Positions 1,805 to 54,743 of a stretch of 64,000 nt of DNA are shown here, one piece after another. The first letter of the stretch is position 1. Each line of letters starts with the position of its first letter. The position numbers and the translations under genes were made by a program. Where the stretch lies: sequence record PZ053912.1. One strand, written 5' to 3'. This DNA comes from a phage. Below the pieces are notes generated by a model. It was not told where the DNA came from and did not search any database. It was given only the letters and a program-made list of their open reading frames with translations.

Positions 1805-2353
1805 TTAACGAGCCCATTTGATAATTTCTGTAATCAAATAATTACGTTCGCTTGCATTAAATCCTATAACTTTGTTAGCACCGTCATGATTAAGTAATTG
1901 ATACGTTTGGATTTTGTTATGAATTGCAAACTCTTCAAAATATGAAATGACTGTATTAAAACCGAATGAAGACAAAGTAATAAGATCGTCTTCAAAACTT
2001 TCAGTCATTTCGTTACGTGTTAAAATAATTGTGAACACATCATGGTTTTGGCAAAGACGAACATAATCCTGTTCATAAACGTCAAGAACCGAGTCCGCAT
2101 CTTGTCGAATACGTCCATAAACCCAGTTACTAATATATCCACGGTCTAACAGATAAATCTTAGTAGGGTCTAAATAATTCAACATCGTTTCGAAACAGCC
2201 AACTTCATTTCGAGACTTAACATCGAAACGTCCATCAACTGTTCGTTTAGGGAAATCAATCTTTACATATCTTTCACTAATTTCCATTATGTCATTAATG
2301 AAAGTTGTTTTACCAGCATTATCCGGGCCATCTACTAAAATAATTTTAGCCAT
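1805..2353 (-). CDS. P-loop NTPase, small kinase-like protein, substrate unknown
   Basis: 182 aa; Walker A GPDNAGKTT at residues 9-17; sits in the block between uvsX and gene 42. Confidence 0.5.
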   Translation of the reverse strand: MAKIILVDGPDNAGKTTFINDIMEISERYVKIDFPKRTVDGRFDVKSRNEVGCFETMLNYLDPTKIYLLDRGYISNWVYGRIRQDADSVLDVYEQDYVRLCQNHDVFTIILTRNEMTESFEDDLITLSSFGFNTVISYFEEFAIHNKIQTYQLLNHDGANKVIGFNASERNYLITEIIKWAR

Positions 2354-2354
2354 T

Positions 2355-3254
2355 TTATTCCTCGATTACGACATCTTCATATTTAGGTATATTATACGGC
2401 GAAGAAATTAAAGCGTTAAAGTAGATGAACTCGCCAAGACCTGGATGGAATACTTCTTCAGGATTTTCGAAATATTGAATCTTCGGCCGTCCTTTAAGAA
2501 TTTGATAGTACTCAGTTTTAGTTGGTTTAAAAATTCGAATCAGCGCTTCTTCAGGATACTTATTTCTGTCGAAGCTATTATTTGGATCGGTTATATAAAG
2601 CGGTTGGCCTAATTGAATTGCACATTCAACCACTTGTTCAAAACGATAGCACGGGTCACTAATTCGAAATGGATGAAAAATACCATCTAGATGAATAGGA
2701 GCCAAATCACCTACAAGACGCTGCATGATGGAAGGACGTATAACTTTCTGGGTTACGATAATCTTATTACCATCTGCACCTGCGTTAACCAGCACTTCTT
2801 TTTGACGTTCATTCAACACAGTAGTTTGAAGTGAACGATTAACCGACAACATATCAGTTTTTAAGAATTCGTCAATATAAAAACGTGGTTTATTAGGGTC
2901 TGCAGTGATATTGAAATTGAATTCCACATCAAAAGCGCCGTCATATCCGGTGATATCTGTGATTAGAAAATCACAATCATAATAAGCAATTAATGAATCA
3001 ACCACAAATTCATTTTCAGACCAGAAATATTTACGAGTGTTATACGCGTTATCTTTATACCATAATGGAACAAACTTAAATTCTGGAAAAAGACGTTCGC
3101 ATTCTTTAATATCAGATGCATTACGTGGATATGTAATCACATCACCCGGATTAGCACGGTGCAAATGAAGTTGGAAGTTGCCATCCTTAAGGATAGCATA
3201 CTGTCCAGTTTCATAAGACCGCATACTCAAGATAGGTACGCGGAAATTAGCCAT
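2355..3254 (-). CDS. Hypothetical protein at the locus where T4 has beta-glucosyltransferase; candidate DNA sugar transferase (inference only)
   Basis: 299 aa ORF tightly packed between the P-loop gene and gene 42; no resemblance to T4 beta-gt or any motif I recognise. Confidence 0.4.
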   Translation of the reverse strand: MANFRVPILSMRSYETGQYAILKDGNFQLHLHRANPGDVITYPRNASDIKECERLFPEFKFVPLWYKDNAYNTRKYFWSENEFVVDSLIAYYDCDFLITDITGYDGAFDVEFNFNITADPNKPRFYIDEFLKTDMLSVNRSLQTTVLNERQKEVLVNAGADGNKIIVTQKVIRPSIMQRLVGDLAPIHLDGIFHPFRISDPCYRFEQVVECAIQLGQPLYITDPNNSFDRNKYPEEALIRIFKPTKTEYYQILKGRPKIQYFENPEEVFHPGLGEFIYFNALISSPYNIPKYEDVVIEE

Positions 3255-41535: not shown

Positions 41536-41838
41536 TTATTTACCTTTAATTACTTTAGCTGCTTCGATAGCCGCTTGCTGAAGGTCATCCATAGACATAC
41601 CGAATTTAGAAGCAAAGTTATCAATTTTCTTTTCAACAGCATTCAAAGGCTTGGCCTGTTTACCTTCATTAGCGCCAGGAAGAGCGAGAATACGCTCTTT
41701 GTCAATATAAAGGCTTACAAGTTTCTTACGGTCTTTATCGGACAAATCGTGAAATGAATGGGCCTTTTTATTTATAGCGGCTTCTAATTTACCTGCACTC
41801 ACTCGCGCTTCAGTAATAAATTCTTGATATGTTTTCAT
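41536..41838 (-). CDS. ipIII: Internal head protein IPIII-like, with N-terminal capsid-targeting sequence
   Basis: MKTYQEFITEARVSAGKLEAAINKKAHSFHDL...; the leader MKTYQEFI-x-E is the recalled T4 CTS. Confidence 0.8.
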   Translation of the reverse strand: MKTYQEFITEARVSAGKLEAAINKKAHSFHDLSDKDRKKLVSLYIDKERILALPGANEGKQAKPLNAVEKKIDNFASKFGMSMDDLQQAAIEAAKVIKGK

Positions 41839-41929
41839 TTTTGTTTCCTTGTTTGTTTTGATAGAGTAATTATACCATATTAATACTTAAGCGTAAACTG
41901 TTTAAGCTTTACCATCGCAACCTTTTTCC

Positions 41930-42343
41930 TTAGTAAATTGATTTACCATAGTATTTGTACCAAGTAGGACGTTGAGCAATTTTTTCATCTAAACGAGCTT
42001 GACTTATCGCAATGGACGCTTCGGTCGGGACATAATTATTACGAAATTCGGCAGGGATGTCGGAAATATCTTGGACAGTCGTGTCCTTGATTTTGAAACC
42101 ACGTTTCAAGCATTCAGCGATTAGCTCGATTTGACGTAAACGTAAAAATTCGAGTTTGTCGTAAAAGAATGTTACATGACCTGTGCCTAAGATAAATGTC
42201 GGGGAGATTTTAAAATCCTTTACACGTTTACCGTTTTGAACATGTTTACGGACTGCACCAAATACGCGTGGTAATTCACGATACTCAGCCATAAGATGTT
42301 GGTCGGTCAGTTCAGAAACAAGTGTTAAATTGATACGAGTCAT
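41930..42343 (-). CDS. denV: Endonuclease V (pyrimidine-dimer DNA glycosylase) DenV
   Basis: [34 protein letters not shown]... matches recalled T4 DenV; start at internal ATG after GGAGGAA. Confidence 0.9.
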
Positions 42344-42401: not shown

Positions 42402-42683
42402 CTATTTTTCTGAAGCGCCTGAAATATATTTTTCAAGACGTTGTTTCATCAGCGAGCCATTCTTAGCGATTTCTTCCGGTTTATCACACATACGCAACAA
42501 GGCTTCAAGCTTAACGATATCACTGGTGCGCTCAAATTTGCGAGTATCTATCTTACTAGCAAGTTCAGAAATACGTGCTAATAGACTTTCAGCTTCAACC
42601 AAAGCTGCACCTAGCTTGGTTGCAAATGTGTCAGTAGCTTCGTTAAGAATAGATTCTGATAAAAATTCACTATATGTTTTCAT
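42402..42683 (-). CDS. ipII: Internal head protein IPII-like, with capsid-targeting sequence
   Basis: [15 protein letters not shown]...; start at the internal Met of ORF 42402..42698. Confidence 0.75.
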
Positions 42684-50084: not shown

Positions 50085-50588
50085 TCATTTATTTTTAATT
50101 TTGCAAATTTTTTCTGCTTCAACAATTGCAGCGTCAATGATGCTTTGTGCAATTTTATTACTAGTTGACCTGGCAATCACACTAAGAACAATTTCTTTTT
50201 CTTCACCACCCCAACCCCAAGTCCTTTGTTCGTGGGTACCTTTAACTACAGCTGAAACTTCAACAGAACGTCCGCCATCAGAAGTTTTAACATCTACAAC
50301 CCAATCACCATCTTTCTCTTCTACCCTTGATTTATCCCAAGAAATACTAATATATGATTCGCTATCAATAGAAGTCGCCTGGTTTTTCTCTACCGTAAGA
50401 CCTTCACTTTCCAGCCATTCAATAGTATTTGCGCATAAATCAGAAGAACACCTCATCGGAAACTGGCAAGATTTTTCACCTTTAGATGCAGCGTTATACA
50501 TCTTTTCTAAAATACGCTTTTGCACGTTTTTAAAAATAGTTTCAGCGGATTCTTCAGATTTTTTATTCAGTTCAGTATAAAGACTCAT
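50085..50588 (-). CDS. Hypothetical protein
   Basis: 167 aa ORF. Confidence 0.5.
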   Translation of the reverse strand: MSLYTELNKKSEESAETIFKNVQKRILEKMYNAASKGEKSCQFPMRCSSDLCANTIEWLESEGLTVEKNQATSIDSESYISISWDKSRVEEKDGDWVVDVKTSDGGRSVEVSAVVKGTHEQRTWGWGGEEKEIVLSVIARSTSNKIAQSIIDAAIVEAEKICKIKNK

Positions 50589-50673: not shown

Positions 50674-50695
50674 AATGGGGACCGAAGTCCCCATT
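50674..50695 (-). terminator. Hairpin AAUGGGGAC-UUCG-GUCCCCAUU directly after the stop of the IPI-like gene; no U tract
   Basis: Seen directly; near-identical to the hairpin at 11170-11189. Confidence 0.4.
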
Positions 50696-50697
50696 CT

Positions 50698-51324
50698 TTA
50701 CTTACGAGTTTTTGCATACTGAGCAGCGTCAGCAGCCAAACGACCTGCCTGACGAAGTTTTTCTTTAATCGCATCGTGAAGTGGTTGAGTATACTTCAAA
50801 CCTTCGATAGTCAAATAAAGACGATAAAGGTCTGGGGTATCAAGGTTGTTGATATGTTGGCCATTACGAAGACTGTTGAATTCACGAACGAGTGAAGATG
50901 TATCGGATTCAATATCACGAACAAGCGAAGATAGTTGTTTATATTTTTTTTCCAGGCTAGAAGTATCAAACTTAAGAGCAGGAGCTTTAGGAGTTGCTTT
51001 TACTTCCGGCTTAGGCTCAGGTTTTGCTATTGCTTTAGGGGTCGCAGGCTTAGGAACGGTAGGAGCAGGTTTTACTTTAGGCGAACCCGATTTAGCAGAA
51101 ACACCGCCACTAACAATATCTTTGAATGCTTTAGAAGCTCTGTAATATTCTTTTTGGCTGGAAGTGTCGATACCATACATGGCTTGAACGTTTTTGAAAA
51201 ACTCTGTACTAGTTTTTGTACCAGAAATAGCATCGTAAGCAGCTTGCCATTTCTCTTTTGTCATACGTACACCGGCTTCGGTGATTACTTCCGTTTCGGC
51301 TAAAAATTCATTAAAAGTATACAT
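50698..51324 (-). CDS. Candidate internal (injected) head protein: CTS-like N-terminus plus Pro/Lys/Ala-rich linker
   Basis: 208 aa; MYTFNEFLAETEV resembles the MKTYQEFIAE capsid-targeting leader; late promoter TATAAATA upstream; T4 ipI sits at this locus. Confidence 0.5.
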   Translation of the reverse strand: MYTFNEFLAETEVITEAGVRMTKEKWQAAYDAISGTKTSTEFFKNVQAMYGIDTSSQKEYYRASKAFKDIVSGGVSAKSGSPKVKPAPTVPKPATPKAIAKPEPKPEVKATPKAPALKFDTSSLEKKYKQLSSLVRDIESDTSSLVREFNSLRNGQHINNLDTPDLYRLYLTIEGLKYTQPLHDAIKEKLRQAGRLAADAAQYAKTRK

Positions 51325-51359
51325 TGATGGTCCTTAGAAAGTAGGTTTATTGTTTACTA

Positions 51360-51367
51360 TATTTATA
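51360..51367 (-). promoter_or_regulatory. T4-type late promoter TATAAATA
   Basis: Exact consensus on the minus strand, about 36 nt upstream of the ATG at 51324 and just downstream of a terminator. Confidence 0.55.
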
Positions 51368-51368
51368 C

Positions 51369-51396
51369 AAAAAAGCCCCAACCTTTCGGAAGGGGC
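51369..51396 (-). terminator. Rho-independent terminator (GCCCCUUCC-GAAA-GGUUGGGGC plus U6)
   Basis: Seen directly; same element as 35106-35135. Confidence 0.6.
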
Positions 51397-51440
51397 TATA
51401 TACCTTGTTGGGGTTTCCACCTACTAAGGCAAGTGTTTGT

Positions 51441-51531
51441 ACGAAACGCCGGGATTCGAACCCGGTTATTAAGCAGTTGACGCTACTCAATATTTTTAAA
51501 AGGCCATATCTCGACCATATCCGAACGTTCC
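51441..51531 (-). ncRNA. tRNA-like element: canonical T-arm and a 7-bp acceptor stem can be drawn but no convincing D or anticodon arm; degenerate tRNA or stable-RNA 3' end
   Basis: Minus strand CCGGG-UUCGAAU-CCCGG followed by CGUUUCG, which pairs with CGGAACG 91 nt upstream. Confidence 0.3.
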
Positions 51532-51700
51532 GTCAAAAACGCTACTCGGCTTACGGCAAAGATATTTCCTCGAATCGATAATTCTTTGCGCCGTTTCTGC
51601 TGTGATGTAAGGGGATATTAACAAATCATAAAGATTTATTAAGACCAGTCCTTACTCAGGGAACATCAGTCCGACGACTTGCCGGTAGCGACCCGGCTTC

Positions 51701-52045
51701 TTATTTTGACATATCATCAATTTGTTCTCTACGTCTACGCCATAGATTAATTACTTCATCAACACATTCAGCATTTGGTATATGACGACAATAGTATAGT
51801 GATTCGCGTTTCTGGAACCGATGTTGTAATGGAATTTCGTTTAAAAGGTCTTTACGGTCAAAGTATTCAAAACTAGTTAACCCGGAACGGTTTTTAAGAA
51901 ACTTCCAATGTCCGAATTCATTTTGAAAATAAACGTAATCAGCGTGTTGATATAACGAATTAATCAACCGATCGGAAATAACTGTATCCTGTTCGTTAAA
52001 ATAAAACGTTAAATCATGAACTACCAAATAAATATTGCCTTTCAT
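51701..52045 (-). CDS. Hypothetical protein in the tRNA region
   Basis: ORF 51701..52093 trimmed to MKGNIYLVV so that it does not overlap tRNA-Arg. Confidence 0.45.
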   Translation of the reverse strand: MKGNIYLVVHDLTFYFNEQDTVISDRLINSLYQHADYVYFQNEFGHWKFLKNRSGLTSFEYFDRKDLLNEIPLQHRFQKRESLYYCRHIPNAECVDEVINLWRRRREQIDDMSK

Positions 52046-53716: not shown

Positions 53717-53980
53717 TTAAATACCAGCTTCGCGTTTAACATAATCGACGTAAGCTTGGATAGCTTTCTTGCTGGTAATTTTTACCTGACCACGACCATT
53801 GCCTTCTTTAGAGTTTTTCTTAACAACTACATTACCATCTTTAACACCCCATACATGGACGTAAGTACCGATGTTTCGGTCGTAGAACATTGCATGGTCG
53901 TTGTTGTAAGAGAATGATTCGTAGTTCTCTGTCAGAGTAGAAGATTGAGATTCGGCGATAAATTCTTTATAGGTTTTCAT
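53717..53980 (-). CDS. Internal head protein IPI-like, with capsid-targeting sequence
   Basis: 87 aa; MKTYKEFIAESQS is a near-consensus CTS; small and basic as expected for an injected internal protein. Confidence 0.65.
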   Translation of the reverse strand: MKTYKEFIAESQSSTLTENYESFSYNNDHAMFYDRNIGTYVHVWGVKDGNVVVKKNSKEGNGRGQVKITSKKAIQAYVDYVKREAGI

Positions 53981-54014
53981 TTTATTTCCTTGAGGCTGTT
54001 TATTTGATAGGATG

Positions 54015-54043
54015 ATAGTAACACACCATCATCCTTATGTAAA
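54015..54043 (-). promoter_or_regulatory. Early promoter (TTTACA-17-TACTAT) with arms GGAUGAU/AUCAUCC flanking the -10
   Basis: Seen directly. Confidence 0.45.
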
Positions 54044-54057
54044 CTGTTTTGTGAAAA

Positions 54058-54743
<686 letters not shown>

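Follow-up and report, generated by a model that had tools for sequence, protein, structure and literature searches.

Introduction

Two internal proteins of T4-like phages, IPI and IPIII, have known roles, and both are counter-defence factors. To our knowledge no phage proteins other than the internal proteins are already in the cell when the DNA enters. Here we analyze an open reading frame (ORF) in a stretch of 64,000 nucleotides of phage DNA (sequence record PZ053912.1; the whole stretch is referred to as the window). The ORF lies at positions 50698..51324 on the minus strand, and its extent from an ATG at 51324 to a TAA stop at 50698..50700 was confirmed as given in the first-pass annotation of the window, a reading of the letters without database searches. 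It encodes a protein of 208 amino acids (23.1 kDa, isoelectric point (pI) 9.5). Judging from its sequence and from analogy to T4, we lean towards interpreting the product as an internal head protein, the fourth in this T4-like phage.

T4 IPI is an inhibitor of the type IV restriction system GmrSD which is packaged and injected (PMC3012670). IPIII is also injected, is needed on E. coli ECOR17, acts in the cytoplasm, and is active without its leader when expressed by the host (PMC9391042). The capsid-targeting leader of T4 is MKTYQEFIAE (PMC8442874). Mutagenesis of the IPIII leader assigned targeting to the aromatic residues 4 and 7, and processing to residues 8 (Leu or Ile) and 10 (Glu) (PMC9026906). 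The ten-residue leader suffices for the packaging of foreign proteins (PMC3012670, PMC9026906, PMC8442874). Authentic sites of the prohead protease gp21 in the Alt protein are ITE-6 and LTE-619 (PMC5694885). According to PMC3012670, which cites Repoila et al. 1994, and to PMC9026906, polymorphic leader-bearing proteins in T-even phages have been established since the 1990s. As such proteins are already known, the 208-residue protein would represent no new principle; it would add one member, at a new locus, to a known kind.

Leader and predicted processing sites

The N-terminus of the protein is MYTFNEFLAETEV, in agreement with the earlier quotation, and a fuller start of the product reads MYTFNEFLAETEVITEAGVRMTK. 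If the first ten residues, M-Y-T-F-N-E-F-L-A-E, are compared to the T4 leader, Phe4, Phe7, Leu8 and Glu10 all agree with the mapped positions. The first-pass annotation had pointed out a capsid-targeting-like leader, and this is well borne out by a strict leader pattern, M..[YF].[EDQ]F[LI].E, applied to the Met-started ORFs of at least 40 residues (692 candidates in the window). Four matches were obtained compared to 0.003 expected from residue frequencies, and the other three are annotated internal-protein genes. These are an IPII-like “internal virion protein” (41536..41838, phrog_7857), an “internal head protein” of 93 residues (42402..42683, phrog_3499) and the gene in the ipI slot (53717..53980, minus strand).

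The capsid-targeting-like leader, delimited by pattern, alignments and literature, takes up codons 1-16 (51277..51324, minus strand) and consists of MYTFNEFLAE followed by TEVITE. It contains two motifs of the gp21 type, LAE-10 and ITE-16. The leader of T4 IPI, MKTFKEFTSTTTPVSTITE, ends in ITE, as do residues 14-16 of the protein studied here, and the 93-residue internal head protein of the window has the same double-site layout. The mature protein is predicted to have a mass of 21.9 kDa if cut after residue 10, or 21.2 kDa if cut after residue 16, with a pI of 9.7-9.8 and a net charge of +12 to +14. The protein therefore has a leader of the capsid-targeting type closed by [L/I]-x-E, and its predicted mature form is small and basic, as in T4-type internal proteins. 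The first-pass annotation took it to be far larger than the remaining internal proteins, which is true within the window (87-100 residues for the others) and not in general, T4 IPIII having 193 residues.

Among homologues the leader is kept at merely 24-40% overall identity. Out of 35 family members whose N-terminus is complete, 34 have the [LI]xE motif at residue 9-10; the exception, P0047, has TSE-10 and yet retains ITE-17. The predicted mature forms are basic in 37 out of 37 family members, with a pI of 9.4-9.9 and a net charge of +8 to +17.

Two other interpretations of the N-terminal region were considered and rejected. A signal peptide or membrane role is contradicted by the acidic N-terminus and the absent hydrophobic segment, and a scaffold-like substrate of multiple cleavage, taken as the principal interpretation, by the confinement of the conserved [LI]xE sites to the leader.

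A predicted late cassette downstream of rnaC

The gene was claimed to have its own late promoter, and the sequence speaks for it. A T4-type late promoter, TATAAATA, matches exactly on the coding strand at 51360..51367 (minus strand), 36 nucleotides 5' of the ATG. It stands behind an intrinsic-terminator-like hairpin identified by folding (51369..51397, minus strand), which comprises the stem-loop AGCCCCUUCCGAAAGGUUGGGGCU at 51374..51397 and a U-run at 51369..51373 (minimum free energy −16.5 kcal/mol, centroid hairpin −16, z = −2.4). This hairpin is predicted to insulate the gene from tRNA/rnaC transcription. The promoter is followed by a Shine-Dalgarno sequence, AAGGA (51331..51335, minus strand), 6 nucleotides 5' of the ATG, so that the mRNA-strand sequence 5' of the ORF reads ...AGCCCCUUCCGAAAGGUUGGGGCUUUUUUG-UAUAAAUA-...-UAAGGACCAUCA-AUG. 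Directly 3' of the stop codon, folding and a pattern scan gave a hairpin with a UUCG tetraloop (50674..50695, minus strand; minimum free energy −16 kcal/mol, centroid hairpin −14.5), which may represent the transcript 3' end, a stabilizer or an attenuator. Downstream of it the next gene has a promoter of the early type, GTTTAC-N17-TACTAT. With its terminator hairpin, late promoter, Shine-Dalgarno sequence, ORF and second hairpin the gene would therefore be a self-contained late cassette amid early/middle genes. Such a promoter is in agreement with the synthesis of internal proteins during prohead assembly.

The promoter is found exactly in PG7, ValerieMcCarty04 (VMC04) and phiD1, and as one-base variants in Marfa, Kosakonia 305, the metagenomic contig L010 and RB69. 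The same upstream hairpin was found in phiD1, T4, PG7 and VMC04.

A canonical late promoter adjoins one out of the four leader-bearing genes of the window, namely the gene studied here. Promoters of the early type (GTTTAC-N17-TATAAT/TACTAT) immediately precede the IPII-like gene (41536..41838) and the ipI-slot gene (53717..53980), which have no TATAAATA within 110 nucleotides upstream (41839..41950 and 53981..54090, minus strand). The octamer also occurs at 41769..41776 (minus strand) within the IPII-like coding sequence, about 20 codons from the start, which may be chance.

The 1.3 kb surrounding the ORF have 99% identity to the Escherichia phages JS09, HX01 and relatives (Mosigvirus, RB69-like T-even phages). 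The ORF lies between e.6/frd.3-like genes and the tRNA cluster, as judged by the gene order in JS09 and Mizar. A homologue of the T4 stable RNA rnaC (species 1 RNA; 51440..51578, minus strand; 137 out of 139 positions identical to T4 in alignment A3) ends the tRNA/stable-RNA transcription unit, and alignment to T4 places rnaD at about 51585..51704. The cassette thus begins just past rnaC, with which the stable RNAs of the tRNA cluster end. The first-pass annotation had placed the gene where T4 has ipI, and this has to be corrected. The location of the IPI family between tRNA.4 and 57B is occupied by the ORF 53717..53980, next to 57B and about 2.4 kb away, and the gene studied here lies directly downstream of rnaC.

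The ORF in the ipI slot itself, annotated as “IpI” in records of the RB69/JS09 type, is similar to T4 IPI in the 19-residue leader only, and BLASTP aligns residues 1-18 only. Since it is a positional analogue of ipI and not a homologue, labels such as “nuclease inhibitor” (in Mizar) are unsupported.

The T4 counterpart of the post-rnaC slot is a gap of 285 bp between rnaC and e.8 (NC_000866 8625..8908) which contains no gene. T4 retains the upstream hairpin, and its sequence diverges after GGTAT, inside the TATAAATA of phiD1 and the window. The junction of gain or loss therefore falls within the late promoter.

This arrangement gives rise to a different reading, according to which the protein is an unpackaged, late cytoplasmic protein whose leader-like N-terminus is a by-product of cassette recombination, the 5' elements acting as recombination linkers. 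We consider this very improbable. It has in its favor that the four leaders of the window have 20-25 out of 30 nucleotides in common, that T4-type genomes are known to recombine at cassettes of hairpin plus promoter (PMC2839356), that the T4 junction lies inside the promoter, and that the virion proteome of ValerieMcCarty04 discussed below is negative. The targeting and cleavage residues are kept across genera while neighboring leader residues vary, which argues for selection on the peptide and not on the DNA. Furthermore, the leader is expected to work whatever its origin, since ten residues of the T4 leader suffice for packaging.

Family and exchange of modules

The protein is a full-length member of phrog_2280 (“unknown function”), with residues 1-203 matching profile positions 1-178 at an E-value of 1.1e-57. 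Proteins of its type gave tblastn matches in 144 phage records, all annotated as hypothetical, which include Mosigvirus, Dhakavirus (JS98), Kanagawavirus, Winklervirus, Karamvirus, Marfavirus, Tegunavirus and others. When 1.8 billion representatives were scanned exhaustively with HMMER, just 13 clusters, all of them T4-like phage proteins, and one low-complexity match were retrieved. The same slot after the tRNA cluster is used in PG7, Marfa, Kosakonia 305, phiA85 and ValerieMcCarty04.

The family alignments reveal four modules, the leader, an N-domain, a Pro/Ala/Lys linker and a C-domain. The C-domain occurs in two unrelated types: type A with an NNLDTPDLY loop, to which the protein of the window belongs, and type B with KYGSIIGS...SQG...GLSYTI, found in relatives of the Jiaodavirus type. 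In P0056 and phiD1 g140 a different N-domain is joined to the linker and a type-A-like C-domain. The g140 type is present in 512 records, among them RB51 (feature RB32ORF132c). It matches phrog_2280 with an E-value of 4e-60, and hhalign aligns the type-A profile with g140 over the full length (94.5% probability, E 8e-8). In the same slot of RB69 (NC_004928 9429..9991) ORF149c and ORF148c are the frameshift-split halves of one leader-bearing gene (MKTYAEFLTE...), and the fused ORF matches phrog_2280 with an E-value of 6e-49. The intact gene of the RB69 type (about 186 residues) is found in 165 other phage records. The identity of this allele between the Mosigvirus RB69 and many Tequatroviruses is 93-97%, which implies that genera have exchanged the cassette recently.

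A further difference was observed between the Jiaodavirus VMC04 and its sister phage ValerieMcCarty03 (VMC03), also a Jiaodavirus, which have about 95% nucleotide identity and differ at the slot after the tRNA cluster. VMC04 (L008 9202..9786) carries a type-B member and an ORF of 57 residues, and VMC03 (2038..2409) an unrelated ORF of 123 residues without leader, the family gene being absent.

Presence or absence between near-identical phages together with swapped N- and C-domains is, as read from the genomes, the arms-race pattern expected of host-range determinants. A full-text search for the family accessions, locus tags and phrog_2280 found no paper; a preprint on the Mosigvirus AV110 treats T4-homologous early genes only, and the fPS-phage paper is without proteome. 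What is new is the recognition of phrog_2280 as a family with predicted leader, late expression and modular organization in a conserved post-rnaC cassette. Also new is that the family is widespread in sequenced T4-like phages and absent from T4.

Predicted domain organization

An AlphaFold2 model of the protein was built with an alignment of 37 sequences (mean predicted local distance difference test score (pLDDT) 75.8). In the leader, residues 4-11 are predicted to be helical and residues 11-18 to be disordered. The leader and both cleavage motifs are thus modeled in or beside a disordered segment that precedes the folded part of the protein. The small N-domain (residues 17-75; 51100..51276, minus strand), delimited by alignment and model, is the best conserved module. 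It is predicted to form three helices (23-31, 39-50 and 57-72; pLDDT 83-89). In alignment A2 its residues G51, Y60 and A66 are invariant, and R20, T22, W26, F42, Y50, F67, K68 and G74 are conserved to at least 90%.

The low-complexity linker noted in the first reading was recovered in composition and model as residues 76-117 (50974..51099, minus strand). It has the sequence SAKSGSPKVKPAPTVPKPATPKAIAKPEPKPEVKATPKAPAL and is rich in Pro, Lys and Ala, with nine positively charged residues (Lys, Arg) and two negatively charged ones (Asp, Glu), leading to a pI of 10.3. It is modeled as disordered (about residues 74-118) with a pLDDT of about 41-50. Among homologues its composition is retained, and its length and sequence vary.

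The C-terminal domain of type A (residues 118-208; 50701..50973, minus strand), delimited by model and alignment, contains a conserved loop, RNGQHINNLDTPDLY, written NNLDTPDLY. A structure prediction of this domain had been proposed as a check. It yields a confident helical domain of three long helices (122-153, 164-177 and 180-207) with a pLDDT of 85-96, mostly above 90, while the fold matches are generic only. Foldseek against the PDB gave no match below E = 2, and those listed are generic hairpins like those of WXG100/EsxA and helical bundles; against BFVD it returned family members only. A sequence-profile search of the PDB found designed antiparallel coiled coils and the Pro/Ala/Lys tails of myosin light chains only. 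In Pfam there is only a sub-threshold match to SIX1_SD, with scattered coiled-coil noise over the 37 members, and in NCBIfam just a compositional match to the Pro-rich spacer of TonB (17 bits compared to a cutoff of 315).

A basic linker of this kind could also mean that the protein is a packaged, DNA-associated “filler”, serving charge neutralization, genome organization or DNA exit via its basic segment and having no specific host target. Basicity is indeed family-wide, and in the linker it is the composition and not the sequence that is conserved, with only compositional matches to Pro/Ala/Lys spacers of the TonB or myosin-light-chain type. T4 internal proteins are described as basic molecules, about 1000 in number, that lie within the packaged DNA (PMC3012670). 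We nevertheless regard a pure filler as unlikely. Two well-folded domains with position-specific conservation (R20/T22/W26/F42/Y50/G51/Y60 and NNLDTPDLY) argue for specific interactions. Further arguments against it are the wholesale replacement of the C-domain, the presence or absence of the gene among near-identical phages, and the three other internal proteins which the phage already has.

Weighing the evidence

The presence of the protein in virions was another check named in the first-pass annotation, and the published proteomes of relatives give a divided answer. In fD1 (= phiD1, a Yersinia phage, Tequatrovirus), g140 was particle-associated at the strict threshold of the authors, and its neighbors g138 and g139 were not (PMC8309999 Table S3). 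The search of that proteome used fully tryptic specificity. The type-B member of ValerieMcCarty04, WKM80661.1, which has the same leader type, the N-domain and an exact late promoter, was not detected.

The latter result is one of several points that count against the interpretation as an internal protein. WKM80661.1 is without peptide-spectrum match (PSM) in CsCl-purified virions of the Klebsiella phage ValerieMcCarty04 (PMC13119998). None of its six expected tryptic peptides (0/6) occurs in the supplement, and the accession-sorted PSM table goes from WKM80658 to WKM80662 (PMC13119998). The positive result for fD1 has low specificity, because 113-137 out of 277 gene products were called particle-associated (PMC8309999), and all virion data come from relatives and not from the 208-residue protein itself. 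No homology was found to T4 IPIII past about 25 N-terminal residues (hhalign probability 3.9%), to T4 IPI beyond the leader (BLASTP E = 34) or to e.7 beyond the leader (hhalign). The protein is therefore placed outside the IPIII and IPI families by homology, and the term “anti-restriction” used in the first reading is pure analogy, since similarity to IPI ends with the leader. No fold or family match in Pfam, NCBIfam, PDB and Foldseek yields a biochemical activity. The late promoter sequence is without enrichment in the window (8 observed compared to 8.2 expected); it is credible because of its position and the conservation of hairpin plus promoter at homologous loci, not because of its count. 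Finally, the frameshifted copy in RB69 implies that a gene of this kind is dispensable in the laboratory.

The ValerieMcCarty04 negative is weak and not decisive, because the same dataset also missed WKM80674.1 (MKSYQEFLMETEALLES..., L008 15897..16280), a leader-bearing protein in the ipI slot for which no genuine peptide was found in the virion proteome. This miss reflects either very low copy packaging of some leader-bearing proteins or under-sampling of the dataset. Two annotated internal proteins are represented in it by 66 and 26 PSMs (PMC13119998).

The same proteome leads to the further reading that the protein is a transient component of the prohead core, expelled or degraded after cleavage like gp22, gp67 and gp68 and hence absent from mature virions. 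That the type-B relative was undetected despite its exact late promoter would fit, as would the all-helical, coiled-coil-like model, which resembles scaffolding proteins. On the other hand, core proteins are cut into small fragments (PMC5694885), and here just two or three [LI]xE motifs occur, both conserved ones in the leader. Moreover g140 of fD1 was found in particles. The gene is not required for assembly, being absent from T4 and some close relatives and frameshifted in RB69. We think a transient core role quite improbable, if slightly less so than an unpackaged cytoplasmic protein.

Proposed mechanism and implications

For a packaged and processed internal protein we suggest the following course, whose first four steps taken together we hold to be rather probable. 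The gene would be transcribed late from its own TATAAATA promoter, as its sequence suggests. Given the match to the T4 IPIII leader, the 23-kDa precursor would bind the scaffolding core of the prohead via its ten-residue leader. The gp21 homologue would then cleave behind LAE-10 and/or ITE-16, a loss of 10 or 16 residues, and leave a strongly basic product of 21.2-21.9 kDa. The mature protein would stay in the head, its linker probably lying along the DNA like an extended basic segment of the histone H1 or TonB type. As in the case of T4 IPI, IPII and IPIII, it would leave the head together with the genome and so reach the cell.

The fifth step is the weakest, since it rests on the analogy to IPI and IPIII and on the evolutionary pattern. 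The protein might act most likely as a host-specific factor of counter-defence or takeover at time zero, with the N-domain and the exchangeable C-domain binding the target. This function we put forward tentatively. The candidate injected effector of the first-pass annotation thus stands in part: leader, motifs, conservation, basicity and promoter, as examined at the sequence level, support packaging, and its arguments from location and size were wrong.

It is also conceivable, though we would not call it probable, that T-even-type phages generally have in the post-rnaC slot a mobile locus for a fourth internal protein, a late-promoter cassette for the delivery of modular injected effectors. 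The leader would be the address, the N-domain and the basic linker would hold the protein with the DNA, and exchangeable C-terminal (sometimes N-terminal) helical modules would each neutralize a different first-line host defence. If this were true, the loss of the cassette in T4, the model phage, would account for the lack of any earlier description.

The three slot types match 144, 165 and 512 records of sequenced T4-like phages, and many of these phages are candidates for therapy. Recognition as probable injected proteins would turn their products into a short list of anti-defence candidates. In addition, the leader could provide a second natural variant for the T4 protein-packaging technology.

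Further observations in the window

The homologue of rnaD (about 51585..51704, minus strand) is identical to T4 at 95 out of 119 positions. Neither rnaC nor rnaD is annotated in JS09 or Mizar, and the two homologues (51440..51704) escape ARAGORN as well as Rfam, with no family at threshold, although the sequence contains a tRNA-like T-arm, GGTTCGAATCC.

At 50085..50588 (minus strand) there is a single ORF of 167 residues, as in Mizar, which corresponds to two shorter annotated ORFs in JS09 (JS09_036, JS09_037) and RB69 (ORF145c/146c). The split in these records suggests a frameshift or an annotation difference. Its matches to several PHROGs of unknown function are divided between its two halves.

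Comparison with known systems

With T4 IPIII the protein shares a similar size (193 residues in IPIII), a ten-residue leader ending in [LI]-x-E, a basic character and a non-essential gene in a variable region. In contrast, ipIII adjoins e and the gene of the window lies downstream of rnaC, and the protein consists of two domains and a linker. T4 IPI has a leader of the capsid-targeting type and the ITE tripeptide in common with it, but the mature IPI* is a compact alpha/beta protein of 76 residues (two sheets, two helices), whereas the protein of the window is predicted to be all-helical with a disordered linker.

The phrog_2280 kin (fD1/phiD1 g140, RB32ORF132c, RB69 ORF149c with ORF148c, JS98 gp135) agree with the gene in slot, cassette, leader and module order, and all are annotated as hypothetical. 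Their difference lies in the N-domains of the g140/P0056 and RB69 types, which cannot be aligned to the protein by BLAST, and for g140 in the much shorter linker (157 residues in total). The type-B relatives (ValerieMcCarty04 gp131, phiA85_00006, P0042-P0052) share leader, N-domain (33-43% identity), linker, slot and late promoter, but have an unrelated C-domain (10-13% identity).

At the level of the cassette, the closest comparison is to the mobile promoter-early stem-loop (PeSL) cassettes of RB49 and phi1. There a sigma-70 early promoter is used, compared to the late TATAAATA of the cassette described here. Both consist of one accessory ORF equipped with a promoter of its own and a stem-loop terminator, and at conserved junctions between genes this unit is gained, lost or swapped (PMC2839356).

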